DNA from: Chlamydiota bacterium
GTDB taxonomy: Bacteria > Chlamydiota > Chlamydiia > Chlamydiales > JAAKFR01
NCBI GenBank assembly: GCA_021772455.1
Contig: JAJFLY010000008.1
Span: 10,741 to 74,740, forward strand
Length of the DNA stretch: 64,000 bases
Direction of reading: 5' to 3'
Shown here: positions 17,581-41,477 of the stretch, one piece after another
Layout: the number at the start of each line of letters is the position of its first letter
Position numbering within the stretch: the stretch's first letter is position 1
Program-made: the position numbers and the translations under genes
Notes under the pieces: model-generated
The model's database searches: none
What the model was told of the DNA's origin: nothing
Seen by the model: only the letters and a program-made list of their open reading frames with translations

Positions 17581-19132
17581 AAGCCCACTTAAAATCTACC
17601 TGTCCCAGATCGTTCACGGAAAGGCCCTGAATTTTCGGGGACTTTAAATGTTTTGAATGCACCATATATAGTGGTATAACCGGCATCTCTTCTAAAATCA
17701 AGAGTTCTGCTTGTTTTAAGTGTTCAAGGCGCAAAATGGGGTCGGCTTCCTGGTCGGCAAGATCGAGTAGCTGCTGGTAGTGTTTGCTCTCCCACTGGGG
17801 GCTATTATATCGATGTGTTTTGTCCTTAAAAAACTCGAGTGTGTAGACGGGATCATGAAATTGACAGTACCAGATGCATCCACCAATTTGAAACTGTCTC
17901 TCACCTAAATTGGAGAAAAAGACGTTCCACTCAGAAGCTATAAGCTCGACCTTGATTCCAAAGGTCTTTTCCCAATTCTGTTGAATCGCTTCAGCTAATT
18001 TTTTTTGGCCAGGAATAGTGCTGTAGCTGTACTTGAGGATTGGAAATTCTTCGCGGGTGATGCAAAGTTCCTGCAGCCCTTGCTCAAAGAGCTTGCGAGA
18101 TTTTTGCTCATTGGAGTCAGGAGAGAGATCGCTTGAGCCTAAGGAGGATAAAGATAAAGGGACGATGCTTTTTGTCGGAGTTTCGCCATGTGCGACATGT
18201 TCAGCAATGACCTCACGGTTTAACGCAACAGAAAGAGCTCTACGAATCTTTGAGGAGTTGAGGGGGAATTTTTCAGTGTTCAGACTGATCCAATAAACCC
18301 CGGAGATGGGTCGGGTGTTGAATTCAGAAGAGCTGGAGATTTTATCGAGTGTATCATGGGGAATGGTTGAGAATGGATGGCCAACCCAATCAATCTCTCC
18401 TTTTTCGTACATAAGAACGACTGTATTAGGATCGTTTACAAATGTGGTTTGAATGGTTTGGAGATGAACAGCGTCTGCATCCCAATATTGGGTGTTTTTC
18501 TCAAGGACGAGTTGTTTGTCATGCTCCCATTTTGTGACGGTAAAGGGTCCATTGAACACTTGAGGATTTTCAGAGTCATCGTAGAGGGGAGAAAAAAGAG
18601 AGCTTGAAATGAGATTGAGAAAATAGGGGGTTGGATGCTCAAGATCGACGATTAGGGTTTTGTTATCGACCGCTTGAATGCCCACTTCATCGAGAGAGAC
18701 CTCACCACACTTGGCTTTTTTGGCATTTTTAATGGAGTAGAAAAGGTCGGCGCGCAAGCAGTTGGATCCTTTAGCGATGGCAGCCTTCCAGGTTCTCTCA
18801 AAGTGAAAAGCGGTCACCTCTTCCCCGTTTGTCCAAACCATAGGACGTATGCGGAATGTATACCGTGTTTGCGAGTGAGAGATGTCTAGCTTTTCCGCTC
18901 CTGCCAGCTCGGGAATTCCTTCGGGCGTTAGACGCGTCAACCCTTCAAAAAGGGCCTTTTGGAAGTTGCGGCACATCGCGTCAATTCCCGTATGTGGATG
19001 GAGGGAGGTGAGATCTGCTTGATTATTTATACGTAGTATTTGTGAAGAGGACATCTGTTTTTCCACATTGTTTTGTTGGTTTTGACACCCACTCAGAGCA
19101 ATTAGTATAATCAGTAGCCATTTATTTTTCAT
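17543..19132 (-). CDS. oppA: peptide/oligopeptide ABC transporter substrate-binding lipoprotein (OppA-like, 529 aa)
   Basis: I trimmed the start to the ATG at 19132, 5 nt after the upstream stop. This gives MKNKWLLIILIALSGC (lipobox LSGC). The rest has family-5 SBP length and composition and is paralogous to the C-terminal half of the upstream ORF. Confidence 0.85.
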   Translation of the reverse strand: MKNKWLLIILIALSGCQNQQNNVEKQMSSSQILRINNQADLTSLHPHTGIDAMCRNFQKALFEGLTRLTPEGIPELAGAEKLDISHSQTRYTFRIRPMVWTNGEEVTAFHFERTWKAAIAKGSNCLRADLFYSIKNAKKAKCGEVSLDEVGIQAVDNKTLIVDLEHPTPYFLNLISSSLFSPLYDDSENPQVFNGPFTVTKWEHDKQLVLEKNTQYWDADAVHLQTIQTTFVNDPNTVVLMYEKGEIDWVGHPFSTIPHDTLDKISSSSEFNTRPISGVYWISLNTEKFPLNSSKIRRALSVALNREVIAEHVAHGETPTKSIVPLSLSSLGSSDLSPDSNEQKSRKLFEQGLQELCITREEFPILKYSYSTIPGQKKLAEAIQQNWEKTFGIKVELIASEWNVFFSNLGERQFQIGGCIWYCQFHDPVYTLEFFKDKTHRYNSPQWESKHYQQLLDLADQEADPILRLEHLKQAELLILEEMPVIPLYMVHSKHLKSPKIQGLSVNDLGQVDFKWAYVEEIIPGLPVR

Positions 19133-22100
19133 CTCTATCCTTTTTAGTGTTTTCAAGATAGGCGGCACGGATGTCGATTTGATTGGAGTTCGAAAGGACA
19201 TATCCTTTTAGCCGCGGATTTTTTACATAGCGGAATTTTTGATAGAACAGTGGAATAACTGGCATTTCATCTAGAAGAATTTGTTCGGCTTGATCGAGAA
19301 GAGCATGACAGGCTTTATGATCTTCAGCTTGCTTGGCTTTTTCGACTAAGCGCGCATACTTGAAATTTTTCCAGCTTGTGATACGCAGGGTATGTTCTCG
19401 ATAGACGATTAGGTCATAAAAATAGCAGGGATGGTCGTGTCTGGGATACCAAACAAGCCCTCCAACCATAAAATCGCCCCGATGAAGCGATTCAAAATAT
19501 TCATTCCAATTGCGTCGCTCATAGATAACTTTTACTCCTAGAGCCTCTTCCCATTGTCTCCCAATCTCACGGCTAATGGATTCCTGTACTTCGATTTCAC
19601 TGTGGGTGAAGACAATTGGGGGAAGTCTATTCGCTGATAAACCTAGATCTTCCAGTCCCTTTTTAAAATAGAATTGAGCCAGTTTAGGATCATTATCTGG
19701 GAAGTTGCGGAGCGGAGCTGGAGAAGAAGAATTAGCAAACCCATAAGCTGGAGTATCAACACTATTTAGGATTTGGTCGATTAAATGTTTTCGATTCAAA
19801 GAGTATGCGAATGCTTTGCGCATATTGAGACTTTGAAAGGGGAGGTGGTCGTGATTGAGTTGTAGCCAGAAAAGGCCGAAATGTTTGTCATCGACCTCTA
19901 ACAAGTTCTTCTTTTTCAAATTTGGAATTAGAGGAGGGTGGATTTTTGTTAACGGATCGCCTAGCCAATCGAGTTCCCCGCATGAGAACAAATCAAAAGC
20001 GGTTTTTTCGTTTTCAATAACACTCAGTTGGATACGGTCAAGTTTTACAGAAGGCGTATCCCAGTAGTTTGGGTTTTTTATCAGCTGAAGTTCGTCATTT
20101 AACTTCCATTTGTCGAGTTTGAAAGGGCCGTTGCAGACATATGTCTCGCCGCTATGGTAGGCCCACCCGGGATGTTTTTGATCTATCTCCCGGCAAAGGG
20201 GTGAGTAGACCCAGCTTGCTGATAATGAAAGGAATGTAGAGAAGGGGTGCTCAAGCTCCACAGAAAGCGTTAGGTTATCGATGGCTCGAATTCCCACTTG
20301 ATTCATCGGGAGCTCTCCCTTTTTTACCGCTTCTGCGTTTTTGATAGGAAAAAAGAGAAGGGAGTAGGGAAAACGGAAGTCGGGTTCTAGGATTTTTTTC
20401 CACGCATACTCAAAATCATAGGCAGAGAGAGGGGCTCCGTTAGACCAGCTGCTTGCGCGTAGATGAAAGCGATAGGTTTTTCTGTCTTCCGAAAGGGTGT
20501 ACGATTCTGCAATCGCTGGTTCGATTTCTCCCGTTTGGGCGATGCGCATGAGCCCTTCATAGAGCATGCAAATGACCACTCCGGAGTTTCGATCTGAACC
20601 CATGCGAGGATCTAGCGATTGGGCAGCTCTTGGAAGGTGGAGGTGGAGGACTTGGAGGTTTTGCTTCTTTTCCAGCCACGATGAAATCGTGGTGTCGATT
20701 AAATGGGTACAATGATCAGCTTGCTCTCGAGTTGGTTTGAGGTAGAGGCAGCAAAAATAATGGAATCGATCGACTTCAATTGAAGAGACTGCGAGTTGAA
20801 GAGTATCGGTTTCCAAAGGTATCAGAACTTCGGTCAGTTTCTCCTTGAGCTCGGGGTGGGTCGATTTAATGACGATTGCAAGAGCGTCATGACGGGCATC
20901 TATTTTTTTAAGACATTCATCTTGTTTAGGAAGGGGAACCTTAAGCATCTCTAAAAAAAGCGAGCAGAGCATTTTTCCTTTGTCAGGAGCAATATAGGTT
21001 TGCATCACCGAAGGGGTGAGTGAGTAGAAAAGATTTTCCAATAAAAAGGCATTTTCTTTTCCCTGCGGTCCGAGCTCTTCTTTGATCGCTTCTAGCTGCT
21101 CATTTTGTTTGAAAAGAAAGCCTCCATTATAATCGCGGAAGGTGCCTACCATCATTTCGAGGGATTTTACGACATATTGACGCGCCTTCACAAGGTCTAC
21201 AGAGTGGTTTTTTCGAAGAAAAAGCTGGTTTTCGATTTCAAGGGTGAAGACATGCGCCTCCTTGACGTATTTCTTGCGAAGCAAGCCCACATTAGCGATC
21301 CGCTCGGGAATAAAATGGACGTTAGGGGGTAGGAAACGGCTGAGTTTAGTTAAGTTGCGGCTATTTTTTGTAAGAACCCTCAAAAGAATGATGTTGAAAC
21401 GGAGTAAATCATTCTGCTGGTCTTGAAATGAGATGAACGCCTGCGGGAGATCGCGCACGTAGCGAAGCTCCTGGCTTAGGTTAATGATGTTCCGGATCAG
21501 CTCTTCTTCATTGCGTGGGATAAAAAGGGAGGGGGAGAGGTACTCGATGCTGTTTTTTAATTCACCCGGTAGCTTTTGTTTTAACTTCTTGATTTCATCA
21601 AGGGTGAAATCACCCCCTTTAGTCTTTTCAATCTCCAGATAGATAGTGAGTAGGCGATTTTCTTCATTTCTGTTGGAGTAATAGGAGTCTTGAGGCGCCT
21701 TTACTTGCTCTGGAATAAGTTGTTGAATCGCTTTTAGGATGTGACGGAGCTCAAAAGATTCGTAATCCTGCAAGGAATTGAGACAGATCGCGATTCCAAG
21801 CACTTTTTTTAAGCCAAAAGGGTAGTGCAGATGCGTGTGCATGAGCTTCAGATAAAGGTGGCGGCTGTGGGGGAAGAGTTTAGAATCTTTTTCGACGGCT
21901 TTTTGAAAGAGGTAGTGGGCGTAAATGATTCGGCATAAATGACGATGATCTCTGATTTGGCGAAAATCTTTTCGGCAATGAGCTAAAAAGTGTTGGATTT
22001 CGCGAAAGATATCGTCGGAGAACCGTTTCGGGTAGCGGCGAATCAGTTCTACTGCTGAATCGTGGATGTAGGAAGTGTAACCCTCCTGCGAAAGGCGTTT

Positions 22101-22562
22101 CATTTCCAGAATATGCTTGGCATGCCCTGAAGTTAGAGCCCCCAGCTTGATCTCTTGAGCGAGTCCTGGAAGACGCTTTTGGACAGCTTGAAGTGTCTTT
22201 TCATCGGGTACGTGAACGAGCAATTCAATAAAAAATAGAGGGGTTTTCCAATAGGGGAGTTTGAAGTCTAAATTTCTGGATGAAAGTAGCTTAAGTTGTT
22301 TATTGGGGACGAGCCAGTTTGTCGACATTTCTTCTACAAAAAGCATAGTTTTCCGGCTCCACTCAGAGGAGCAGAGAAGATAGAGAGAGAAAGCCCCGGG
22401 AGCAACGTTTACTTGCTTCCACTTTACCAGAGGGAGTTTTTTTGCGAGGTCTTCTTGGGTTGCAAGTTCCCGCCCAAAAACCTTGTTTGCAACTTTAAGC
22501 AAACTCTGTTTGTGCTTTTGTAAGTGATCGCTATCTGAAGAGGTTGCTTCCTCTTGGAGCAT
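19122..22562 (-). CDS. fusion protein: uncharacterised ~635-aa N-terminal domain plus OppA-type solute-binding domain (1,146 aa, no signal peptide)
   Basis: The N-terminal half is collinear with the 623-aa ORF at 45899-47770 (e.g. RNEEELIRNIINLSQELRYVRDLPQAFISF vs QNEEMVMRNIVTLSHQLKFVGDLPQVMIDF; FRKNHSVDLVKARQ vs FRKNHSVDLYKARK). The C-terminal half (from ~LHLHLPRAAQSLDPRMGSD) is a family-5 SBP. The N-terminus MLQEEATSSDSDHLQKHK is polar. Confidence 0.8.
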   Translation of the reverse strand: MLQEEATSSDSDHLQKHKQSLLKVANKVFGRELATQEDLAKKLPLVKWKQVNVAPGAFSLYLLCSSEWSRKTMLFVEEMSTNWLVPNKQLKLLSSRNLDFKLPYWKTPLFFIELLVHVPDEKTLQAVQKRLPGLAQEIKLGALTSGHAKHILEMKRLSQEGYTSYIHDSAVELIRRYPKRFSDDIFREIQHFLAHCRKDFRQIRDHRHLCRIIYAHYLFQKAVEKDSKLFPHSRHLYLKLMHTHLHYPFGLKKVLGIAICLNSLQDYESFELRHILKAIQQLIPEQVKAPQDSYYSNRNEENRLLTIYLEIEKTKGGDFTLDEIKKLKQKLPGELKNSIEYLSPSLFIPRNEEELIRNIINLSQELRYVRDLPQAFISFQDQQNDLLRFNIILLRVLTKNSRNLTKLSRFLPPNVHFIPERIANVGLLRKKYVKEAHVFTLEIENQLFLRKNHSVDLVKARQYVVKSLEMMVGTFRDYNGGFLFKQNEQLEAIKEELGPQGKENAFLLENLFYSLTPSVMQTYIAPDKGKMLCSLFLEMLKVPLPKQDECLKKIDARHDALAIVIKSTHPELKEKLTEVLIPLETDTLQLAVSSIEVDRFHYFCCLYLKPTREQADHCTHLIDTTISSWLEKKQNLQVLHLHLPRAAQSLDPRMGSDRNSGVVICMLYEGLMRIAQTGEIEPAIAESYTLSEDRKTYRFHLRASSWSNGAPLSAYDFEYAWKKILEPDFRFPYSLLFFPIKNAEAVKKGELPMNQVGIRAIDNLTLSVELEHPFSTFLSLSASWVYSPLCREIDQKHPGWAYHSGETYVCNGPFKLDKWKLNDELQLIKNPNYWDTPSVKLDRIQLSVIENEKTAFDLFSCGELDWLGDPLTKIHPPLIPNLKKKNLLEVDDKHFGLFWLQLNHDHLPFQSLNMRKAFAYSLNRKHLIDQILNSVDTPAYGFANSSSPAPLRNFPDNDPKLAQFYFKKGLEDLGLSANRLPPIVFTHSEIEVQESISREIGRQWEEALGVKVIYERRNWNEYFESLHRGDFMVGGLVWYPRHDHPCYFYDLIVYREHTLRITSWKNFKYARLVEKAKQAEDHKACHALLDQAEQILLDEMPVIPLFYQKFRYVKNPRLKGYVLSNSNQIDIRAAYLENTKKDRDEK

Positions 22563-22709: not shown

Positions 22710-25700
22710 ATGGGTGGAGAAAAAAAATGGTATAAAGAAGCGATTATCTACGAGCTGCACGTCAAGTGTTTTAGCGATAGCTCGGGAGATGGGTTTGGGG
22801 ATTTCAAAGGGTTAACCCAAAAACTCGACTACTTGCAAGACCTCGGAGTGACAGCGATTTGGCTTCTCCCATTTTACCCCTCTCCTTTAAAAGATGATGG
22901 GTACGATATCGCTGATTACACAGACGTTCACCCACAGTATGGTAGGCTGCAAGATTTTAAGACGTTTTTAAATGAAGCGCATCGTCGCGGTCTGAAGGTG
23001 ATCACCGAGCTTGTAATCAACCACACTTCCGATCAACACCCCTGGTTTCAAAAAGCACGTCATGCAGAAAAAGAATCGAAGCTGCGCGATTTTTATGTTT
23101 GGAACGATTCACCCGAAAAGTACAAAGATGCGCGGATCATTTTCCAAGATTTTGAGAGCTCAAATTGGACATGGGATCCGATTGCAAAAAGTTATTATTG
23201 GCACCGATTTTATTCCCATCAGCCCGATTTGAATTTTGAAAACCCCGCTGTCCACGAAGCGATTTTTCAGAAGCTGAGCTTCTGGCTGAAAATGGGTGTC
23301 GATGGGGTGCGTCTTGATGCTGTGCCCTATTTGTATGAGAGCGAGGGGACCATCTGCGAAAATCTTCCTCAGACCCACGCCTTTTTAAAGAAATTGCGCA
23401 CCTACATCGATGAGAATTTTGAAGACCGTATGCTTTTGGCGGAGGCAAATCAATGGCCAGAAGATGCGGCAAAATATTTCGGGTCCGGCGATGAGTGTCA
23501 TATGGCTTTTCACTTTCCAGTGATGCCGCGCCTCTTCATGTCGATCCATTTGGAAGATTCGCTCCCAATTATCGAGATCATGGGACAAACCCCCCAAATC
23601 CCTACTAATTGTCAGTGGGCTCTTTTCTTGCGCAATCACGATGAATTAACGCTTGAGATGGTGACCGATGAGGAGCGCGATTACATGTTTCGTGTCTATG
23701 CGCACGATCCACAAGCGCGGGTCAATCTTGGAATTCGCCGTAGGCTCGCCCCGCTTTTAAAAAATGACCGTCGCAAGATCGAATTGATGAATACGCTGCT
23801 CTTCTCGCTTACTGGAACGCCTGTCCTCTATTATGGTGATGAGCTTGGGATGGGGGACAATATCTATCTTGGAGACCGTGACGGGGTGCGTACACCGATG
23901 CAGTGGAGCAATGACCGCAACGCCGGTTTTTCCCGTGCCAATCCGCAGCAGCTCTACCTCCCGCCCATTATCGACCCTGAATACCACTACGAAACATTGA
24001 ATGTCGAGGCTCAACTCAACAATCCCTACTCGCTTTTGTGGTGGACAAAGCAACTCGTTGCGCTGAGAAAGCGGTACAAAGCATTTAGCTACGGAACAAC
24101 GGAGTTTTTGATTCCTGAAAACCGGAAAACTTTGGTCTTTTTTCGAGAGTGTGAAGACGAGCTGTTGATGGTTATCGCAAACCTCTCTAGATTCCCTCAG
24201 TACGTAGAATTAGATTTAAAGAAATACGATGGCTACAGTCTTGTCGAAATGTTCTCAGGACAGAGCTTTCCAAATATCGGGGAGCTGCCCTACTTTTTGA
24301 CACTGGGCCCTTACGGCTACTACTGGTTTTCTCTAAAAAAGGAGCCTGAAGTGAGTGAGCTTGCCTTGGCTGTTAGAGAAAAAGAGCAGCAGATTATAGA
24401 GTTTACCCATAAGATCGAGCTCAGCGAGATTTTCCAAACTTCTATGCACCGCACTCTTGTGGGTATTTTGAGCAAGTATTTAGCCAAACGGGCGTGGTTT
24501 CAACCCTATCTTTCTCAGCTCGATCGGACAAAAACGCGCATTGTCGATCATCTCCACCTCTCAAAATGGGACCTTCATCTTGTAATGCTTGAAATCATGC
24601 TTATGAACGGGGTTATCCATAAAATTCCTCTTTTTGTTCGCCTTGACAAGAGAGGAATTCAGACACGTCCAGAGTTTGTGATCGCACAGTTTGAAAATGG
24701 TGTGCTGTACGAGGATTCAGAGATCACGGAAGTGCTCGATGACATTATCTGCAACAAACGCAGGTTCTGCTCTGATAAGGGAGAAATGCGTGGTGTGAAT
24801 CTGACAGCGGATCGAGATTCTGTCCTTTTAGAAAATGAATCAATGGATCAGCACCGCGAAAAGGAGGGGGTCATTTTACCTCTCAAAAATGGGGTGTTAA
24901 AGGCTTTTACGATGGTCGAAGAGGGGCTGAAGCTCGATGTCGAGATGCGTCTCTTTCTCACCCAGAAAACCGATTTTCGCGCGTTTATCCCTCTTCGGGG
25001 ATATATTGAGTATTCGACCCATGCACGTACAACGGTCGCTTTAGTTGAGGAAATTGCAGCTCATAGAACGGAGTTTAATGCGAAAGAGCTGGCTGTAGAG
25101 GCTGCTGATCGCTTTTTACTTCGCATGGAAGCAAACCCCCATGACATCGCGGTGCCGAAAGACTCTCTTTTAACTTTAGCAATGGGAACACTCGAAGAGG
25201 ATGTTCATACCCTTTTGGAGGAGCAACTCGAGGTCTCCCGCCTTCTAGGAGAGACGACGGCCCATTTCCATCAGGCAATGTGCTCCTCTCAAATCGACCC
25301 CGATTTTGCCTCGATCCCTTTTACCCTCTTTTATCAACGCTCTTTATACCAGAATATGCGCCGCAAAATTCTTGAAGCTGTCGAACATAAAGATCTTGGG
25401 AAGGAATATGAAGAGCGCTTGCTAAAGCTATTGCAGAATCTTCCCCATGAAAAGCTAAATGCCGAGAGGATCCGGTGCCACGGAAATTTTGTCCTTGAGA
25501 ACCTCCACTATACGGGAAAAAAGTATCTGATCGGGAATTTCGAGGGCAAGCAAGATGCGACCTACAACCAAAGGCGCTATAAACGCTCTGCCCTTGACGA
25601 TTGCGCCTCTATGATTCTCTCCTTCTCAGAGGCTGGATTTGAAGCTATCGACCGATTGAGACAGCGGGGTACGCTTCGTGACGACCAGATCGAGCTTGTA

Positions 25701-25925
25701 AATAAGTGGGCGCAGGTGTGGTCGATATGGGTTAGTGCTTCATTTTTAAGAGCTTATTTCCACACTCTCGGTCAAGCCTCTTTTCTTCCTAAGGATACGA
25801 AAGAAATAGATTTTCTTCTCGGGATCTTTTTGATAGAACAGTGTGTTGATAAGGTTGCAACCTCTAAAGGGAACGCGCCTATTTCAGCGCTGCTGCATTG
25901 GCTTCCGATTTATGAATCTTTCTGA
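22710..25925 (+). CDS. treS: trehalose synthase fused to a maltokinase-like (Pep2/Mak) domain (1,071 aa)
   Basis: GH13/TreS motifs WYKEAIIYELHV, GVDGVRLDAVPYL (nucleophile), LLAEANQWP (acid/base), FLRNHDELTLE. The C-terminal ~480 aa align by eye with mycobacterial maltokinase around RCHGNFVLEN...LIGNFEG. Confidence 0.9.
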   Translation: MGGEKKWYKEAIIYELHVKCFSDSSGDGFGDFKGLTQKLDYLQDLGVTAIWLLPFYPSPLKDDGYDIADYTDVHPQYGRLQDFKTFLNEAHRRGLKVITELVINHTSDQHPWFQKARHAEKESKLRDFYVWNDSPEKYKDARIIFQDFESSNWTWDPIAKSYYWHRFYSHQPDLNFENPAVHEAIFQKLSFWLKMGVDGVRLDAVPYLYESEGTICENLPQTHAFLKKLRTYIDENFEDRMLLAEANQWPEDAAKYFGSGDECHMAFHFPVMPRLFMSIHLEDSLPIIEIMGQTPQIPTNCQWALFLRNHDELTLEMVTDEERDYMFRVYAHDPQARVNLGIRRRLAPLLKNDRRKIELMNTLLFSLTGTPVLYYGDELGMGDNIYLGDRDGVRTPMQWSNDRNAGFSRANPQQLYLPPIIDPEYHYETLNVEAQLNNPYSLLWWTKQLVALRKRYKAFSYGTTEFLIPENRKTLVFFRECEDELLMVIANLSRFPQYVELDLKKYDGYSLVEMFSGQSFPNIGELPYFLTLGPYGYYWFSLKKEPEVSELALAVREKEQQIIEFTHKIELSEIFQTSMHRTLVGILSKYLAKRAWFQPYLSQLDRTKTRIVDHLHLSKWDLHLVMLEIMLMNGVIHKIPLFVRLDKRGIQTRPEFVIAQFENGVLYEDSEITEVLDDIICNKRRFCSDKGEMRGVNLTADRDSVLLENESMDQHREKEGVILPLKNGVLKAFTMVEEGLKLDVEMRLFLTQKTDFRAFIPLRGYIEYSTHARTTVALVEEIAAHRTEFNAKELAVEAADRFLLRMEANPHDIAVPKDSLLTLAMGTLEEDVHTLLEEQLEVSRLLGETTAHFHQAMCSSQIDPDFASIPFTLFYQRSLYQNMRRKILEAVEHKDLGKEYEERLLKLLQNLPHEKLNAERIRCHGNFVLENLHYTGKKYLIGNFEGKQDATYNQRRYKRSALDDCASMILSFSEAGFEAIDRLRQRGTLRDDQIELVNKWAQVWSIWVSASFLRAYFHTLGQASFLPKDTKEIDFLLGIFLIEQCVDKVATSKGNAPISALLHWLPIYESF

Positions 25926-28275
25926 AATACCAACATCTGTCTATCGCTTTCAGCTAAACGGTGATTTTCCCCTAAAAAAAGCGATTCAATATCTCCCCTA
26001 TCTTAAAGATTTAGGTGTGGAGGGGGTCTATTGCTCTCCCTTTTATGATGCTTTTAGCCCACACGGATATGATGTCACCGATCCGAACAAACTCAATCCT
26101 CAAATCGGAACTCCCGAAGAGTTTGAAACGTTTTGTAAAACGCTTAAAAAACTAGGACTCAAGCAAATCCTCGATGTCGTTCCCAACCACATGGGTTTCA
26201 AGGGAGGCAAAAATAAATGGTGGCAAGATGTTCTCGAAAAGGGCCCAGGCTCTCAGTATGCCCACTTTTTTGATATCAATTGGAATCCTGAGAAACACGA
26301 GCTGCAAAACCGCGTCTTGCTCCCCATCTTAGGGACAAGTTTTGGTGAGGCTTTAGACACGAACGCCATTCAGCTCCACCATGAAAATGGACGTCATTGG
26401 TATACATATGGCGATTACATCCTTCCAGTGGCCCCTAATACCGATTCAAAATTGGATAAACAACACTATCGCCTAGCCTATTGGAAGGTGGCGAGTCACG
26501 AGATTAACTACCGCAGATTTTTTAACATCTCTGAGCTTGTTGCAATTCGGATTGAAGACGAAGATGTTTTAGAAGCGCACCACAAGTGGCTTTTCGAGCT
26601 CATAGAAAAAGGCTATGTTCAGGGCTTAAGGATCGATCATCCCGATGGCCTTTACGATCCGGTTACCTATTTTGATCGTTTGCGCGCCCGTTATCCAATC
26701 TACACTGTTGTCGAAAAAATTCTCGATCGAGAAGAAGATCTGCCCGAGAATTGGAAGGTAGAGGGGACGGTCGGCTATGAATATGTAAACGTATTAAACG
26801 GTCTTTTTATCGACCAAAGCCACGAGCGCGATTTGGATGCAATTTATCAAGAATTTATCAGAGAGGCTCTCGATTTTGATGAAATTGTCTATCAATCGAA
26901 AAAGCTTTTTGCCGAGTATGAAATGGTGAGCGAAGTGGAAGCGCTTGGATTTCTTCTCGACCGCCTCTCGGAAAAGAGTCCTTATTACCGCGACTTTACC
27001 CGTTACGATTTAACCAAAGCCCTATCTGAGGTGATCGCGTGTTTCCCGGTTTATCGCACTTATATTGCCCCTGGAGGGAAAGTCAGTACACGCGATTCCA
27101 AATACCTCACAGTTGCCATTGAAAAAGCGAAAATGCGCGCCACCGATCTCGACCCCTCGATTTTCGATTTTCTCGATAAGTTATTGCATCTGAAGTTGGG
27201 AGATGAAGAATTTGTTTTAAAATTCCAGCAGCTCACCGCCCCGCTTATGGCAAAAGGGGTAGAAGATACCGCATTTTATCGTTACAACCGCTTTATCGCC
27301 CTCAATGAAGTGGGAGGAGATCCCACCCATTTTGGGTATTCGGTCAGCGATTTCCACCGATTTAATCAAGAGAAACTGAAAAAATGGCCCTTGGGTTTCC
27401 TCGCATCCTCCACACACGACACCAAGAGAAGTGAAGATGTGCGGTATCGCCTCGATGTTTTGAGTGAGATTCCTAAAGCATGGCACAAAGAGGTTGTAAA
27501 ATGGAGTGCATCTGTAAAAAGTAAGGGCGTCTCAAAAAACACCCAATATTTGATTTTTCAGCTCCTTGTAGGCGTATGGCCGTGTGAAAAAGAGCGTCTT
27601 TGGGAAGTTGTGTTAAAATCGATCCGTGAGGCGAAGTTAGAGACAAATTGGATCTTTCCTGACCTCGCATACGAAAAGAAGGTGCGCAAATTTCTTTTTG
27701 AGCTGCTCGAAAACGCAAATATTCTCTTTTTCGTGCAGCAGATAGAGCATTTTGGCGCGCTTAATAGCTTATCAGCGACGGCCATAAAACTCGCTTCATG
27801 CGGAGTTGTCGATATCTATCAGGGGAATGAACTACTCAACTACCAACTTGTCGACCCCGATAACCGCACTCCCGTCGATTTTGAATGGCGTGAAAAAGAG
27901 TTAATGGCGATTAAAAAGGGTGACACCTCCAACTTGAGTCGGTTAAAAGGGTTTTTGCATTGGAAGGGGCTTCATTTCCGCCACGACCACCCCGCCCTTT
28001 TTCTGGAAGGTGATTACATACCTTTAGAAGTGAAGGGACAAAAAAATAAGCACTTAATCGCCTTTATGCGCATGCATGGAAAAGAGGCCTTGATCGTCTT
28101 AGCTGGGCGCTTTTTTGCCTCCCTCGAAGATGATTGGGAAGATACGGAGGTTGTCATCCCGAAAGACTACACATGGACCGAAATTTTTACGGATACGAAG
28201 ATCACAAATTTCTTAGTTTCCGATATTTTTAAGCAACTACCTGTTGGGTATATTTATGGAAAAAGTAGCAGCTGA
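25912..28275 (+). CDS. treY: malto-oligosyltrehalose synthase (787 aa)
   Basis: I trimmed the start to the ATG at 25912, which overlaps the treS stop by 14 nt. GH13 motifs DVVPNHMG, GLRIDHPDGL, VVEKIL; FLASSTHDTKRSEDVR is typical of TreY. Confidence 0.9.
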   Translation: MNLSEIPTSVYRFQLNGDFPLKKAIQYLPYLKDLGVEGVYCSPFYDAFSPHGYDVTDPNKLNPQIGTPEEFETFCKTLKKLGLKQILDVVPNHMGFKGGKNKWWQDVLEKGPGSQYAHFFDINWNPEKHELQNRVLLPILGTSFGEALDTNAIQLHHENGRHWYTYGDYILPVAPNTDSKLDKQHYRLAYWKVASHEINYRRFFNISELVAIRIEDEDVLEAHHKWLFELIEKGYVQGLRIDHPDGLYDPVTYFDRLRARYPIYTVVEKILDREEDLPENWKVEGTVGYEYVNVLNGLFIDQSHERDLDAIYQEFIREALDFDEIVYQSKKLFAEYEMVSEVEALGFLLDRLSEKSPYYRDFTRYDLTKALSEVIACFPVYRTYIAPGGKVSTRDSKYLTVAIEKAKMRATDLDPSIFDFLDKLLHLKLGDEEFVLKFQQLTAPLMAKGVEDTAFYRYNRFIALNEVGGDPTHFGYSVSDFHRFNQEKLKKWPLGFLASSTHDTKRSEDVRYRLDVLSEIPKAWHKEVVKWSASVKSKGVSKNTQYLIFQLLVGVWPCEKERLWEVVLKSIREAKLETNWIFPDLAYEKKVRKFLFELLENANILFFVQQIEHFGALNSLSATAIKLASCGVVDIYQGNELLNYQLVDPDNRTPVDFEWREKELMAIKKGDTSNLSRLKGFLHWKGLHFRHDHPALFLEGDYIPLEVKGQKNKHLIAFMRMHGKEALIVLAGRFFASLEDDWEDTEVVIPKDYTWTEIFTDTKITNFLVSDIFKQLPVGYIYGKSSS

Positions 28276-30028
28276 AAAAACATGGCAACTAGGACTTGGA
28301 GCCAACTTCGACAAAAATGGGAACACGACCTTTAAGGTTTGGGCTCCTTATCGCTCTTCTTTGCAATTGAAAGTGGTTGGAAAAGAGACCTATTCGATGA
28401 AGCGCGATCGAGATGGATTCCATACATTCCAAACCGATCAAGTCGTTCCTGGAGACCAGTATTATTATATAACGATTCACGACCGGGCAAGACCTGACCC
28501 AGTATCAAGATCTTTGCCCCACGGTGTTCATGGCCCCACAGAAGTAATCGATCCCCACGCCTTTACTTGGGATGATCAAGAGTGGAAGGGGATTGCCATA
28601 CGTGATGCGATTCTCTACGAAATGCATGTTGGCGTCTACACTCCCGAGGGTACTTTTGATGCAGCAATCGGCAAACTCCCGTATTTGAAAGATTTAGGGA
28701 TCAATTGCATCGAGATTATGCCCCTTGCCCAATTCCCGGGCCGTTTTAATTGGGGATACGATGGAGCCTCTCTCTACGCACCTTTTGGCGGGTACGGAGG
28801 AGCTGAAGGATTTAGGCGTTTTGTCAATGCATGCCATAAAGCAGAAATTGCTGTCTGTTTAGATGTTGTTTACAATCATCTTGGTCCCGAAGGAAACCAC
28901 CTACAAGAATTTGGTCCCTATTTTAGCCATATCTACCACACTCCATGGGGTAAAGGCTTTAATTATGATGGCATGAATAACGGCACAGTTCGTGAGTATG
29001 TGATTAACAACGCCCTTTACTGGATGCACGAGTATCATGTCGATATGCTGCGTCTCGATGCCGTTCATGGGATTTATGATATCAGCGCTATACCCATGCT
29101 GCAGGAATTAACCCAAGCCGTCCAAGAAGCTTCCACGAATTTAGGACGCAAGCTCCACGTTATCGCTGAAACGGGTCTCAATGATACACGGGCGATTCGC
29201 ACCAAAGAGTATGGTGGGATGGATCTGTGTGCCATTTGGAACGATGATTTTCATCACACAGCTCACGTCGCACTCACCGGGGAAAAGACGACCTATTACA
29301 GCGATTACAACGGCCTTCTTGACTTGGCCACTACCCTTTCAAAAGGTTTTGTCTACGATGGAAAATTCTCCGAATTTAGAAAATGTCGCCACGGCAACTC
29401 AGCTGCAGATATCCCTTTCGAGAAGTTGATCGTCTTTCTTCAAAACCACGACCAGACAGGAAATCGTCCCATGGGCGATCGCCTTTCGACACTTGTAAGC
29501 AAAAATAGACTGAAAGTAACAGCCTGCATGACCTTGTTATCTCCCTCGGTTCCCATGTTGTTCATGGGTGAAGAGTATGGAGAGACCGCTCCCTTTGAAT
29601 ACTTTGTTGATTATGAGAATGAAGCGTTGATGAACTCCATTTTCCAAGGGCGCAAACACGAGTTTCATTGTGACGATATGCCCTATCCAGGTGAAGAGTC
29701 TTTCAATAATTCCCAATTGACGTGGAAGGAAGATAGCGAGATGCTTACGCTCTATAAGACCCTCATCAACATCCGTAAGAACAACCGCCCAAAAGAAGGC
29801 ATTACGGGCGTAGACATCCACGTTTATAGCTCAGAGGAAGAGGAGTGGGTTGCTTGGGAGTATCCGACAGAAAAAGGGGAGTGGCTCGGAGTTTTTCTCT
29901 ATCTCGGTTCTGAAAAATTGGCTTTTTGCCCACCTTTTCAAAAAGCAAAGGGAGAGATTCTCCTGGCAACTCAAAAAACGGATCAAGGGCAGTTATGTCC
30001 AGATACGTGTTTAGTTATAGGGTCATAG
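28256..30028 (+). CDS. treZ: malto-oligosyltrehalose trehalohydrolase (590 aa)
   Basis: The ATG at 28256 overlaps the treY stop by 20 nt. GH13 motifs DVVYNHLGPEGN, MLRLDAVHGI, VIAETGLND, FLQNHDQTGNR. Confidence 0.9.
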   Translation: MEKVAAEKTWQLGLGANFDKNGNTTFKVWAPYRSSLQLKVVGKETYSMKRDRDGFHTFQTDQVVPGDQYYYITIHDRARPDPVSRSLPHGVHGPTEVIDPHAFTWDDQEWKGIAIRDAILYEMHVGVYTPEGTFDAAIGKLPYLKDLGINCIEIMPLAQFPGRFNWGYDGASLYAPFGGYGGAEGFRRFVNACHKAEIAVCLDVVYNHLGPEGNHLQEFGPYFSHIYHTPWGKGFNYDGMNNGTVREYVINNALYWMHEYHVDMLRLDAVHGIYDISAIPMLQELTQAVQEASTNLGRKLHVIAETGLNDTRAIRTKEYGGMDLCAIWNDDFHHTAHVALTGEKTTYYSDYNGLLDLATTLSKGFVYDGKFSEFRKCRHGNSAADIPFEKLIVFLQNHDQTGNRPMGDRLSTLVSKNRLKVTACMTLLSPSVPMLFMGEEYGETAPFEYFVDYENEALMNSIFQGRKHEFHCDDMPYPGEESFNNSQLTWKEDSEMLTLYKTLINIRKNNRPKEGITGVDIHVYSSEEEEWVAWEYPTEKGEWLGVFLYLGSEKLAFCPPFQKAKGEILLATQKTDQGQLCPDTCLVIGS

Positions 30029-33640: not shown

Positions 33641-34294
33641 TTATGCAATCACTGGGATGATGAGATTAGTTACTTGTAGAGAGTGTTCGTGGAATCCAGC
33701 TTCATAGAGATCGCGGGCAATCCCTTGCAGTGTCTCTGTTCTGACAGTAACATCTCTCAATTGAACGATCTCATCGATTCTCCGCAAGGCGCCAGCTAAA
33801 TGAAATGCTTTATCAAAAACCGGAGACTGAGGGCGCTTAGAGCGTTCCGCTCTTTCATACTCTTTATTTCCTAGATCCGCTAATTCGCAACACGCTTTCT
33901 CTCTTGCATCTTCTGAATCTTGAAGCAATAATGGATCTAGTATCGAATCAAATTTTAATTTTTGCTCTAAATGAAATCTTCTTTTTTCTACTATATCTGA
34001 CAAGGCTCGCCATTGCCTACAAACGGCCTTTGTTGATTTTAAATCATTACGAGGAAGATGAAGGAGCACGTTATGAATAATTTCGAGAGGAAGTACTTGA
34101 TTCTCTAGATTAAATTTTGTTTGTTCCACCGCAGTCCATAACTTATAAAAAGCGGCCTCTGCAGGTTTTAAATCCTCGTGCGGAAGATAAAGGAGTACTT
34201 TTTTAAAAATTTCGGGAGGGAGCTGATTTTTTATCAGACTTTCCTCGCTTGAAAATTGAGGAAGCTCACCACCTCTGTTTGTTACTGCGCTCAT
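33641..34294 (-). CDS. eukaryote-like protein with two tandem F-box motifs (218 aa)
   Basis: I trimmed the ORF-track TTG extension to the ATG at 34294. LPPEIFKKVLLYLPHEDLKPAEAAFYKLW and LPLEIIHNVLLHLPRNDLKSTKAVCRQWRAL match the F-box consensus LPxEIlxxIlxxLxxxDLxxxxxVCKxW. Confidence 0.7.
   Translation of the reverse strand: MSAVTNRGGELPQFSSEESLIKNQLPPEIFKKVLLYLPHEDLKPAEAAFYKLWTAVEQTKFNLENQVLPLEIIHNVLLHLPRNDLKSTKAVCRQWRALSDIVEKRRFHLEQKLKFDSILDPLLLQDSEDAREKACCELADLGNKEYERAERSKRPQSPVFDKAFHLAGALRRIDEIVQLRDVTVRTETLQGIARDLYEAGFHEHSLQVTNLIIPVIA
33962..34222 (-). repeat. tandem duplication (~43-aa period) of the F-box module at protein level
   Basis: Residues 25-67 and 68-111 of the trimmed protein align position by position (LPxEI..VLL.LP..DLK...A...W......K/R.F.LE). 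Confidence 0.6.
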
Positions 34295-34748
34295 ATTATT
34301 ACTAATGGTTATTAAACAACCAATTATATCAATTTTTCGTAAGTCACACAATAACAAACGTTTATATGACAATTTAAAATAAATACTAGTAGTGGGATTG
34401 TTGAAGAATAGCTCTATTCTCCCCTTTTGGCTGCTTTTTGCCCAATTTGAACGATCGCTCGCTCGCCGTATGGGAAATACTGTCTTCGCTCGCGATCGTC
34501 CAACTCGAACAAAAATCACCAAAAGCTCTATTTTTACGCTCTCAAGGATCGATCTTCCTAAGATTATAACACATGCACAGTAGAGTGAATTGAAGTGAGT
34601 TTTTGAGCCAACTCCGATACCGCACTCGTCTATTGGATACTGAATTTCTGGATCGGGGCGCTTAAGATAAGTTTGACATCTGCCGTCTCCGGTGTTAATA
34701 CAATCGCTTTCATAACTCCTGTTCTAACACACTGGTTTGATATACGAA

Positions 34749-35828: not shown

Positions 35829-36176
35829 GAGCATGGGAATGGTGATCATTCCGAGGCCGATATAATATTTTTCTGAACAACTTGGACCCGCTCCGCAAAT
35901 GTCGATCGGATTCCAGCCTGGGATCTCCTGAATGGCGATCTGGTAGAGAGCTACCACAAGGCCGATGATTATCTGCGGTAGTACGTAGCGGGTGATGTCA
36001 AAGAAGCTTTTATAAGCTGCGATTCCGAGGATGATGACTAAGGGAAAAAGACAAATCCGTTGAAACCAGCACATGTGACACGGTTCTAGGTGGCGAATTT
36101 CGCTGAAATATAAGCTCACGAGCGTGCCGATTGAAGCGAGTAGCCATGCAATATAGAGTTCTAAACTTCGTGCCAT
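35745..36176 (-). CDS. dsbB: disulfide bond formation protein B (DsbB/BdbC family, 143 aa)
   Basis: Four TM helices, a CxxC in the first loop (CHMCWFQR) and a second Cys pair (ICGAGPSC). Confidence 0.75.
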   Translation of the reverse strand: MARSLELYIAWLLASIGTLVSLYFSEIRHLEPCHMCWFQRICLFPLVIILGIAAYKSFFDITRYVLPQIIIGLVVALYQIAIQEIPGWNPIDICGAGPSCSEKYYIGLGMITIPMLSAAGFIVIGVFLLLCWKRNTRKQMEEK

Positions 36177-36847
36177 TAATATACCCCTTCGTGCTCGAGA
36201 ACTTCTTGGATCAATTTGGAAAGTCCATCTACTGTGAGCTCTTTAACTTCGATTCCGTTTACATACACTGTAGGTGTTGAGATCACTCCCCCCATTACTT
36301 TCGCGCCATACTCGGTGTTCTTCTTGATTTGGACGCGGTACTTCTCCATATCGATACATCTGGTGAGCTTATCGATCTTGATGGCAGGAGAGGTTTTCTT
36401 AGCAAACTCTCCAAGCTCAGCAGATGTTGCCCAATCGGTATGTTCGTCAGGTTGGTGTTCGTAAATGTAGTCGAAGTAATTTAAAAACATCTCACTGTTT
36501 GGATAGTCAGGGTCGGCATTGTAGACGCACAGAAGGGCAACGGCAGCTGGCATCGATCCAGGTAAAAATGAGACGGGAATAACGGTGTAGGTTACCTTGT
36601 TTGTATCGATGAACTCTTTTTTGATCGTTGGAAAAACCATATCATTATAATCGCGACAATTGGAGCACTTTGGTTCCTCGAAAACGACAATATGGACGCG
36701 GGCTTTTGGATAGCCGATTGTGGGTTGTCCTTCTGTATCGAGTTCAATTGCGGGAGGGAGCTCTGTTGAGCATAGATAATAAATTGTTCCACAAGCAATA
36801 ACAAGTAACGCAAAAGTAAAAACAACCAACGATTTAATATGACGCAT
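36176..36847 (-). CDS. DsbA-like thioredoxin-fold thiol:disulfide oxidoreductase, membrane-anchored/secreted (223 aa)
   Basis: N-terminal hydrophobic anchor and a CxxC active site (EEPKCSNCRDY). Its stop abuts the dsbB start. Confidence 0.75.
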   Translation of the reverse strand: MRHIKSLVVFTFALLVIACGTIYYLCSTELPPAIELDTEGQPTIGYPKARVHIVVFEEPKCSNCRDYNDMVFPTIKKEFIDTNKVTYTVIPVSFLPGSMPAAVALLCVYNADPDYPNSEMFLNYFDYIYEHQPDEHTDWATSAELGEFAKKTSPAIKIDKLTRCIDMEKYRVQIKKNTEYGAKVMGGVISTPTVYVNGIEVKELTVDGLSKLIQEVLEHEGVY

Positions 36848-40400: not shown

Positions 40401-41477
40401 ATGTCGACCGAAAAGCAAGTAGTTGTTGTAACAGGAAGCAGTGGACGGATAGGCACACGGATAATTGAAAGCTTAGGCGAAGAATTTCAACCGGTTGGAT
40501 TAGATTTTGTCGGAATCACATCTCATATACCTTCTATGGAATTTGTCTATGTCGATCTCTCATCGGATGAAAGTGTTGAGTGCGCCTTTGATCGCATTCG
40601 CAAGGCTTATGGGAATCGAATTGCATCGATTATTCATCTTGCCGCTTTCTATAGCTTTGAAGGGACACATCTCGAGCTTTATGATGCGATCACAGTTGAA
40701 GGGACGCGTCGAGTGCTACGAGAAGCGAAAAAATTCGAGGTTGGCCAGTTTATCTTTACTAGTACGATGCTCGTGCATGAACCAAGTGAGAGGGGAGTGA
40801 TCCAAAACGAAGATTCTCCGATTCGCGGAAAATGGCACTATCCCGCATCAAAGGTGCGCACCGAGAAGGTGATTCGCGAAGAGCACGGAGATATTCCCTA
40901 TGTGATCATCCGTATCGCAGGGTGTTATGATGACACGTGTAACTGCGTGCCGATCTCACAACACATCTCTCGCATCTACGAAAAGCAGTTAGCCAGTCTC
41001 GTCTTTCCGGGCAACTCATCGAACGGCGTCCCCTATACCCACTTTGAGGATTTAAGCGATCTCCTCTTACTTTTGATCCATAAGCGCAAAGAGGTTCCTA
41101 AAGAGCTTGTCCTGCTATGCTGCGAAGAAGATTCCATCACCTATCGCGAACTCCAAACAGCATTTGGACATCTGATTCACGACTCAAAAAAATGGCCGAT
41201 GTGGTGGATTCCAAAGCCGATTGCAAAAATGGGCGCGTGGGTACAAAACCATACACCCTTTATGGCAAAGCCCTTTATTAAGCCCTGGATGGTCGATCTT
41301 GCCGATGATAACTATCAATTTACAATGGAAAGGGCAAAAAAAGTTCTTGGCTGGTCACCTAAACGCTCTTTACGTAAGACCATGCCAAAATTAATAGAAA
41401 ACATGAAAGCCGATCCCATTGCGTGGTATAAGCGGCACAACATCCCTGTTCCTCACTCTCTAAGGAGAAAAAAATGA
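40401..41477 (+). CDS. NAD-dependent epimerase/dehydratase family protein (extended SDR, 358 aa), paralog 2
   Basis: VTGSSGRIG, YPASKVR (YxxxK). It is collinear with 2793-3887. Confidence 0.8.
   Translation: MSTEKQVVVVTGSSGRIGTRIIESLGEEFQPVGLDFVGITSHIPSMEFVYVDLSSDESVECAFDRIRKAYGNRIASIIHLAAFYSFEGTHLELYDAITVEGTRRVLREAKKFEVGQFIFTSTMLVHEPSERGVIQNEDSPIRGKWHYPASKVRTEKVIREEHGDIPYVIIRIAGCYDDTCNCVPISQHISRIYEKQLASLVFPGNSSNGVPYTHFEDLSDLLLLLIHKRKEVPKELVLLCCEEDSITYRELQTAFGHLIHDSKKWPMWWIPKPIAKMGAWVQNHTPFMAKPFIKPWMVDLADDNYQFTMERAKKVLGWSPKRSLRKTMPKLIENMKADPIAWYKRHNIPVPHSLRRKK

Follow-up and report, generated by a model that had tools for sequence, protein, structure and literature searches.

In the Chlamydiae, the GlgE pathway has been reported from only five species, belonging to the Waddliaceae, Criblamydiaceae and Parachlamydiaceae (Colpaert et al., PMC7935935). 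In the chlamydiae that have the pathway, treS-mak sits in the glgE operon, and the Estrella enzyme, a fusion of trehalose synthase (TreS) with a maltokinase (Mak), is an active kinase (PMC7935935); it is toxic in E. coli, an effect that the authors blame on maltose-1-phosphate. A search of open-access full text returned no description of an inactive Mak domain, and the only TreS-Mak mentioned in this paper on chlamydial glycogen and in a 2024 review is active. Here, we analyzed a 64-kb stretch of DNA from a Chlamydiota bacterium (hereafter the window), which carries a TreS-Mak fusion gene, treS-psiMak, whose C-terminal half (psiMak) retains the Mak fold and is predicted to have lost kinase activity. 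The gene and its two halves are as follows:

22710 to 25925, + strand: treS-psiMak open reading frame (ORF), 1071 aa, TreS plus a Mak-like half (TIGR02456, 896 bits; TIGR02457, 115.7 bits)
22725 to 24338, + strand: TreS (GH13) half, residues 6-543 (TIGR02456 match; D203, E245 and D311 intact)
24435 to 25922, + strand: Mak-like (psiMak) half, residues 576-1071, comprising cap, intermediate lobe and C-lobe (TIGR02457, AlphaFold2 (AF2), Foldseek)

The product is 100% identical to a protein already present in the NCBI data (P0023), which was recovered in a full-length homologue search. The sites of the former kinase active site that are discussed below are located as follows:

24825 to 24875, + strand: remnant of the EQSNxS nucleotide-positioning loop, residues ~706-722, LLENESMDQHREKEGVI, with Ser, Asn and Gln lost (motif table)
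24900 to 24902, + strand: Lys731 (VLKAF), equivalent to the AMLKV Lys that binds phosphate, retained (motif table, alignment)
25485 to 25487, + strand: Asn926 (aat), where the HGD motif has its catalytic base, Mycobacterium tuberculosis (Mtb) Mak D322 (phmmer, MAFFT, codon reading)
25500 to 25502, + strand: Asn931 (aac), where HGDxHLGQ has its Mg1-binding Gln (alignment)
25536 to 25538, + strand: Asn943 (aat), where the DFE motif has its Mg-binding Asp, Mtb Mak D339 (phmmer, MAFFT, codon reading)
25836 to 25880, + strand: degenerate maltose-pocket helix, residues 1043-1057, EQCVDKVATSKGNAP (alignment, site table)

An initial annotation, which aligned this region by eye with mycobacterial maltokinase, had proposed that both catalytic aspartates are replaced by asparagine. 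Using phmmer against the solved maltokinases of M. tuberculosis, M. smegmatis and M. vanbaalenii (PDB 4o7o, 5jy7 and 4u94), we found that RCHGNFVLEN pairs with HGDLHLGQ and LIGNFEG with LIDFEGE, which places Asn926 and Asn943 at Mtb Mak D322 and D339, respectively. The same register was obtained in MAFFT alignments with 22 and with 119 homologues, and the possibility of a misaligned motif was rejected. The by-eye alignment is thus upheld, as are the replacements of the base and of the Mg-binding Asp, on which HMMER and the 120-sequence MAFFT alignment concur; codons 926 and 943 both read aat, one base from gat, as had been noted. One detail of the annotation has to be corrected: the Asn five positions after the base had been taken as kept, but Mak has a Gln there, the Mg1 ligand (Gln310 in M. 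vanbaalenii Mak; PMC4306142), and Asn931 is therefore an additional substitution. The experimental precedents for such changes are direct: D339N, the exact Asp-to-Asn change seen here in the DFE motif, abolishes the activity of Mtb Mak (PMC4306142), and D322A leaves less than 13% of it (PMC4171701).

The two aspartates are not the only losses. From the Mak structure papers (PMC4306142, PMC4171701) we took a set of functional residues comprising the EQSNxS loop, the AMLKV Lys, HGD, the Mg1 Gln, DFE and 11 maltose contacts, the latter being, in Mtb numbering, W222, D322, H324, P344, S367, Y370, K426, Y429, E430, Y433 and R438. The window protein keeps a single maltose contact of the 11, S971 (Mtb S367), and three of the eight nucleotide and Mg residues; among the related proteins described below, which we refer to as the clade, the means are 1.9 and 1.7, as against 10.7 and 7.8 in canonical TreS-Mak. 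The EQSNxS loop, to which both structure papers assign a role in positioning the nucleotide, has lost Q143, S144 and N145 in all 49 clade members (65-69 of 70 canonical proteins keep them), and 14 of the 49 have a deletion here. In Mtb Mak, mutation of the Ser of this P-loop greatly reduces activity and mutation of the Asn abolishes it (PMC4306142). The Mg1 Gln, present in 68 of 70 canonical proteins, is replaced in the clade by Asn (34/49) or His (11/49), and the GDAW motif of the hinge is lost. In the maltose-pocket helix, Mtb K426, Y429, E430 and Y433 are replaced by Q, D, K and T, respectively, R438 is deleted, and the canonical EKAxYELxYELNNRPxW reads EQCVDKVATSKGN-AP, in agreement with the initial remark that the C-terminal YE..YE...RP.W segment looks degenerate. 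Mak mutants at the K/Y/Y positions are inactive or strongly impaired (PMC4306142), and alanine mutants of Mtb Mak at D322, H324, S367, Y370, Y429, E430, Y433 and R438 show less than 13% activity (PMC4171701).

Family profiles reflect this erosion. TIGR02457 aligns with residues 576-1051 of the Mak half at 115.7 bits, far from its cutoff of 375.05; Pfam APH scores 20.8 bits, under the gathering score of 23.2, and Pfam returned no Mak_N_cap match in the window protein. Some elements persist: Lys731 (among the 49 clade members, 33 have K there and 13 have R), the ELH His854 and the DVA Asp964. All the available sequence criteria point to disabled catalysis and substrate binding in the Mak half. 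The proposal that the domain is a pseudokinase that has lost phosphotransfer is thus borne out as a prediction, given the inactivity of D339N in Mtb, the loss of the loop, of the Mg1 Gln and of 10 of 11 maltose contacts, and the failure of the profiles. Since the Mak half fails the defining catalytic features of its family, it should not be filed as a maltokinase (EC 2.7.1.175). As a separate observation, Glu930 (25497-25499), four positions past the former catalytic base, belongs to a clade motif HGNxxL[ED]N in which the position is acidic (E in 29/49, D in 12/49); canonical Mak mostly has Gly there.

The full-length homologue search showed that about 49 homologues, at 51-75% identity to the window protein, share the dead-Mak state; those that are named come from metagenome-assembled genomes (MAGs) of Chlamydiales, Chlamydiae or Chlamydiia. 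Precomputed Mak_N_cap or APH matches are lacking in all of them, whereas the next-best hits (Chloroflexus, Desulfobaccales, Binatia, Gemmatales and others) have such matches. When clade and canonical sequences are aligned together, the former read HGN[YF]xL[ED]N...NFEG and the latter HGDxHLGQ...DFEGEP...YELxYELNNRPxW. An Asp is found at the first site in 69 of 70 canonical TreS-Mak and in only 2 of 49 clade members (N 37, H 3, K 2, D 2, the others including R, S, G and Q), and at the second site in all 70 canonical proteins and in 8 of the 49 (N 33, D 8, H 6, with T and G also occurring). The comparison of D and N in related genomes that the initial annotation had called for thus gives mostly N, and no clade member has both Asp together. 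This pattern of Asp loss is far beyond chance. At each of the two Asn sites, both AAT and AAC codons are used across the translated loci, which indicates synonymous turnover while Asn was kept.

Neighbor-joining (NJ) trees recover the clade as monophyletic relative to 69 canonical TreS-Mak, with bootstrap values of 97/100 for the TreS half and 100/100 for the Mak half, the canonical set being one that leaves out the active chlamydial enzymes of Estrella and Waddlia. GyrB of the window is 88-75% identical to that of Chlamydiales MAGs; of the named taxa, Candidatus Protochlamydia phocaeensis and Parachlamydiaceae MAGs come nearest, at only 70-72%, and psiMak is also present in genomes with closer GyrB. 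These sequence comparisons fit vertical inheritance of psiMak in an uncultured Chlamydiales lineage. The inactive state, as judged from the aligned residues, is clade-wide and old rather than the outcome of two recent single-base changes. No clade member bears a UniRef source tag, so that cultured chlamydiae may lack psiMak, and this absence may explain why it went unnoticed. The names given to clade members by NCBI range from "maltose alpha-D-glucosyltransferase" to "GlgB"; three of them, P0029, P0033 and P0041, are called "1,4-alpha-glucan branching enzyme GlgB", an apparent misannotation.

How the search was made affected what was recovered. With the Mak half alone as query, we obtained distant canonical Mak (at most 35% identity) and missed even the identical protein; that psiMak might be an orphan domain was rejected when the full-length query found the clade. 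Likewise, a scan of genome contigs with the single Mak half gave no match, and an alignment of five clade sequences found four Chlamydiales MAG loci. Among the 150 best representatives matched by the psiMak profile, 112 have both Asp (D/D), about 20 have one or both replaced, and 17 were not matched by the site pattern; three N/N proteins of this set are TreS-Mak fragments nearer to canonical Mak than to the chlamydial clade. Such N/N proteins outside the clade indicate that dead Mak domains arose more than once, and their sequences suggest independent Mak inactivations. Metagenomic proteins of this kind, with Asn at one or both Asp sites and nearer to canonical Mak, are P0230, P0239, P0271, P0083 and P0015.

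Despite these losses, the domain is folded in prediction and under selection. The AF2 model of residues 551-1071, built from an 80-sequence alignment, has a mean predicted local distance difference test score (pLDDT) of 94.6 and a predicted template modelling score (pTM) of 0.93. Its best Foldseek matches in the PDB are the Mak structures 4o7o, 4u94 and 5jy7 (template modelling score normalized on the target 0.73-0.78, ~500 columns, E 1e-17 to 1e-20), followed by glucosamine kinase and then APH enzymes. The three-subdomain Mak fold, with N-terminal cap, intermediate lobe and helical C-lobe, is thus retained in the model. The ratio of nonsynonymous to synonymous substitutions (dN/dS, omega) was obtained from the two closest pairs of related loci only, pairs of the window with a relative being saturated (dS undefined). 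Between L006 and L007 (dS 0.5-0.74) it is 0.16-0.27 in the psiMak half and 0.04-0.07 in the TreS half, and between L008 and L009 it is 0.07-0.10 and 0.014-0.034, respectively, that is, about 4-fold higher in the psiMak half. The 10 translated loci (the window and nine relatives) contain no internal stop, and a recent pseudogene was rejected on the grounds of full length, stop-free frames and omega of 0.07-0.27.

The selected domain has nevertheless diverged faster than canonical Mak halves: among pairs with a TreS identity of 0.7-0.8, the identity of the Mak half is 0.33 in the clade and 0.49 in canonical proteins, and at a TreS identity of 0.8-0.9 the values are 0.41 and 0.55. In the Mak half, the clade conserves 41 positions at 90% or more. 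Most of these belong to the structural core common to real Mak (R920, R922, H924, G925, G936, F944, K958, R959, D964, S971, W1004 and W1007), and some, such as R747 (48/49; Gly in canonical proteins), are specific to the clade. The largest drops in conservation fall on the P-loop, the hinge and the catalytic and DFE segments. A homologous fold, missing catalytic residues and purifying selection, which define a pseudokinase domain, are thus found together in the Mak half.

The TreS half is an ordinary, intact trehalose synthase, judging by its profile match, end-to-end similarity and catalytic triad. Residues 6-543 match TIGR02456 at 896.3 bits (cutoff 678.35), residues 3-547 match the solved TreS 5x7u at 856 bits, and Pfam identifies Alpha-amylase and Malt_amylase_C domains. 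The GH13 catalytic triad, which the initial annotation had read as retained, is indeed present as D203 (RLDAVPYL), E245 (AEANQ) and D311 (NHDELT), and these residues are invariant over 72 homologues (alignment A5).

Downstream of treS-psiMak lie two further genes of trehalose metabolism:

25912 to 28275, + strand: treY, malto-oligosyltrehalose synthase (TIGR02401, 834.7 bits, cutoff 498.65; start inspection)
28256 to 30028, + strand: treZ, malto-oligosyltrehalose trehalohydrolase (TIGR02402, 638 bits, cutoff 538.8; start inspection)

The likely ATG of treY at 25912 overlaps the stop codon of treS-psiMak (ATGAATCTTTCTGA), and the likely ATG of treZ at 28256 overlaps the end of treY; these overlaps suggest that the three genes form one translationally coupled unit. 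Here treY and treZ are adjacent and co-oriented, and the order is conserved in related loci (L002-L004, L008-L010 and L012). The longer arrangement of two oppA-like genes, treS-psiMak, treY and treZ recurs in L002-L004, L008 and L009, and in L012 the three tre genes follow different upstream genes. Two basal clade members carry malQ (GH77) directly upstream of treS-psiMak: L010 (7971-9944), and L011 (3652-9959), in which the order is a glgA-like gene, malQ, treS-psiMak and treY. By gene content, these malQ and glgA neighbours link the cluster to classical glycogen and maltose metabolism. Elsewhere the neighbourhood has shrunk around an intact fusion: L001 (10001-15956) keeps treY with treZ missing, and in L006 (10001-13174) and L007 (10001-13195) treS-psiMak stands alone, with both treY and treZ missing beside it. 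In agreement with the initial annotation, which saw no glgE nearby, none of the 47 window ORFs of at least 150 aa that were scanned matched GlgE or GlgB, and no glgE-like gene was found within 10 kb in 11 related loci. Rfam identified no RNA in the window, and a scan of the window for promoters and terminators was uninformative.

Other genes of the window deserve mention in their own right. Divergently oriented upstream of treS-psiMak, an OppA-like solute-binding protein of 1146 aa (19122-22562, - strand) matches SBP_bac_5 only over residues 679-1053, its N-terminal extension of ~680 residues having no Pfam match; L004 (4775-8215), L008 (6452-9892) and L009 (6451-9891) have an oppA-like gene of the same length in the same divergent position upstream of the fusion. 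Farther away are a 2926-aa ORF (7666-16446, +) whose sole Pfam match is DUF3638 (residues 1922-2119), a 293-aa protein (33641-34522, -) with a eukaryote-type F-box (Pfam F-box, E 5.6e-11), and a 444-aa protein (41474-42808, +) that has both SPW repeats and a vitamin K epoxide reductase (VKOR) domain. F-box domains occur in host-interacting effectors of amoeba-associated bacteria. A thioredoxin-like protein (36176-36847, -) is encoded ~4.6 kb upstream of the SPW-VKOR gene.

Based on these results, we favour, with a probability of about 0.8, a reading in which the fusion is an active TreS that carries a selected pseudokinase domain, probably structural or regulatory, the kinase activity having been lost together with the GlgE route. 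The bifunctional TreS-Mak architecture would then most likely have one enzymatic activity, that of a trehalose synthase interconverting maltose and trehalose. The C-terminal half would be a maltokinase descendant that kept the whole Mak fold and, as its sequence predicts, lost maltose phosphorylation along with the base (Asn926), both Mg ligands (Asn943 and Asn931), the EQSNxS loop and 10 of 11 maltose contacts. The inactive state would have originated once, in the ancestor of the uncultured Chlamydiales lineage, and would have been under purifying selection since. Such long retention under purifying selection argues that the dead domain does something non-catalytic; by analogy, it would most likely dock on the C-terminal beta-sandwich of TreS and mediate the oligomerisation or stability of the enzyme, and it may have been kept owing to a structural dependence of TreS on it. 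In the complex from M. smegmatis, it is chiefly by its C-lobe that Pep2 docks on the C-terminal beta-sandwich of TreS (PMC6509496), Mak dimerisation has been proposed as a scaffold (PMC4171701), and the Estrella TreS-Mak is a dimer (Colpaert et al., PMC7935935), consistent with an oligomerisation role of the Mak domain. A scaffold role of the Mak moiety, as put forward in the initial annotation, is compatible with the omega values, the confident Mak fold and the conservation in the clade.

In terms of metabolism, TreY and TreZ would make trehalose from glycogen or malto-oligosaccharides, TreS would return trehalose to maltose, and MalQ, adjacent in basal clade members, may feed maltose back into glucans and glucose. 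The kinase would have been silenced when the GlgE route was abandoned, a loss that is expected at that point because maltose-1-phosphate is toxic without GlgE; in mycobacteria, GlgE inhibition is likewise lethal through maltose-1-phosphate toxicity (PMC4663749).

Several points weigh against this reading. The scaffold role is one that we infer, and the full-length AF2 model (pLDDT 82, pTM 0.66, with low confidence in parts of the TreS half) does not inform the docking of psiMak on TreS. The glgE negative covers the 64-kb window and 10-kb flanks, so a second, active treS-mak with glgE may lie elsewhere in these genomes, and the single origin is read from trees drawn without the active chlamydial fusions. 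In addition, the retention of Lys731, His854 of ELH, Asp964 of DVA and the acidic E930 makes a residual or altered ligand-binding site possible, and some pseudokinases recognized at the sequence level have proved catalytic by non-canonical means.

The main alternative to a scaffold is ligand sensing, in which the dead domain would bind a nucleotide, maltose, trehalose, maltose-1-phosphate or a glucan and set the activity or direction of TreS allosterically, for instance between developmental stages. We regard this as possible but improbable. It would account for the purifying selection and for the retention of Lys731, His854, Asp964, the ERRxKRS segment, R747 (48/49) and E930; moreover, the ATP site of Pep2 lies beside the TreS interface in the mycobacterial complex (PMC6509496), and in the active fusion of Estrella the TreS activity is inhibited by ATP (PMC7935935). 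However, the nucleotide loop is deleted or replaced in all clade members, and the hinge GDAW motif has gone together with 10 of 11 maltose contacts. A still less likely alternative, which we consider quite doubtful, keeps the domain as a kinase, of maltose or of a new substrate, with a non-canonical site in which E930, for example, would serve as a relocated base and the metal would sit on Asn or His. The acidic residue at position 930 in most of the clade (E 29/49, D 12/49), the retained Lys731, the selection on the domain and the survival of the DFE Asp in eight and of the HGD Asp in two clade members can be cited for it, but D339N alone abolishes the activity of Mtb Mak (PMC4306142), and here the gamma-phosphate loop has gone along with the Mg1 ligand and the maltose pocket. 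The residues at the Asp sites also vary (N/H/K/R/S/G/Q at the first, N/H/T/G at the second), which is unlike the behaviour of catalytic residues, and E at position 930 occurs in active-type Chloroflexus sequences as well, alongside the Asp.

Two further explanations would do away with a function for the domain, or with its inactivation. That the Mak half is a functionless, decaying remnant, merely undeleted so far, is already disfavoured and very unlikely. The half does evolve faster than its canonical counterpart at equal TreS divergence (identity 0.33 against 0.49 at a TreS identity of 0.7-0.8), with an omega about 4-fold above that of the TreS half, but this omega remains far under 1, and the half is of full length and stop-free over ~49 lineages spanning 51-75% identity, has 41 positions conserved at 90% or more and a confident fold prediction, and is kept even where treY and treZ have been lost. 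Finally, each Asn codon being one base from gat, the substitutions could have been sequencing or assembly errors, or strain-private mutations in a normal TreS-Mak; this is refuted, for practical purposes, by the dozens of independent assemblies that share the state and by the many accompanying motif losses.

If an active TreS with a selected pseudokinase domain is what these genomes encode, it has consequences for how chlamydial glucan metabolism is read. The TreS-Mak architecture is routinely taken as a marker of the GlgE pathway, and this clade keeps the architecture without the kinase, so that pathway reconstructions for environmental chlamydiae based on it would be wrong. Whether the GlgE operon is ancestral in Chlamydiae or was acquired laterally was left undecided by Colpaert et al. 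(PMC7935935); an inherited inactive Mak in lineages without a nearby glgE is the relic predicted by a scenario of ancestry followed by loss, which phylogeny can test. Maltose-1-phosphate being toxic, selective killing of the kinase with retention of the domain would be a safe way of dismantling the pathway, and psiMak offers a natural experiment on the non-catalytic contribution of the Mak domain to TreS. To our knowledge, bacterial metabolic enzymes fused to a pseudokinase that descends from a small-molecule kinase have rarely been described. A more speculative idea, which we hold only tentatively, is that psiMak is a fossil of an ancestral TreS-Mak/GlgE route across a broad range of uncultured Chlamydiae, repurposed after the loss of glgE as a regulatory module, a sensor or assembly switch, that controls the direction of TreS in the developmental cycle; if true, bacteria would have a metabolic pseudokinase that acquired a regulatory function.

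Compared with known systems, the protein is a member of the TreS family and would function as one. Its first 545 residues match stand-alone trehalose synthases (PDB 5x7u, 3zo9 and 4lxf) from end to end, scoring 745-856 bits and sharing the catalytic triad, but those enzymes lack the C-terminal Mak-fold domain. The Estrella TreS-Mak (PMC7935935) comes from the same phylum and has the same architecture, with the GH13 TreS in front and the Mak fold at the C terminus, in a similar length of ~1070-1115 aa. The Estrella enzyme accepts ATP, GTP or UTP for maltose phosphorylation, whereas the window protein is devoid of the Asp pair, the EQS loop and the maltose pocket, and the Estrella gene belongs to a glgE-treSmak-glgB2 operon, whereas the window gene adjoins treY and treZ with no glgE nearby. 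The mycobacterial Mak/Pep2 enzymes and the TreS:Pep2 complex (4o7o, 4u94, 5jy7) provide the best structural matches, over cap, intermediate lobe and C-lobe, and mycobacterial TreS and Mak associate physically as the two halves do here by fusion; they are, however, separate polypeptides, are catalytically active and share 16-18% sequence identity with the window protein, in which the Mak residues that mutagenesis showed to be required (D322, D339, S144, N145, H324, Y370, Y429, E430, Y433 and R438) are all replaced or deleted. As for function, a parallel is integrin-linked kinase (ILK), a scaffolding pseudokinase to which Li et al. likened Mak itself (PMC4171701). Like ILK, psiMak combines a selected kinase fold with a defunct active site and a presumed role in protein-protein assembly; ILK is a eukaryotic protein kinase acting in signalling, whereas psiMak is related to an ELK/APH-type sugar kinase and is fused to a metabolic enzyme.

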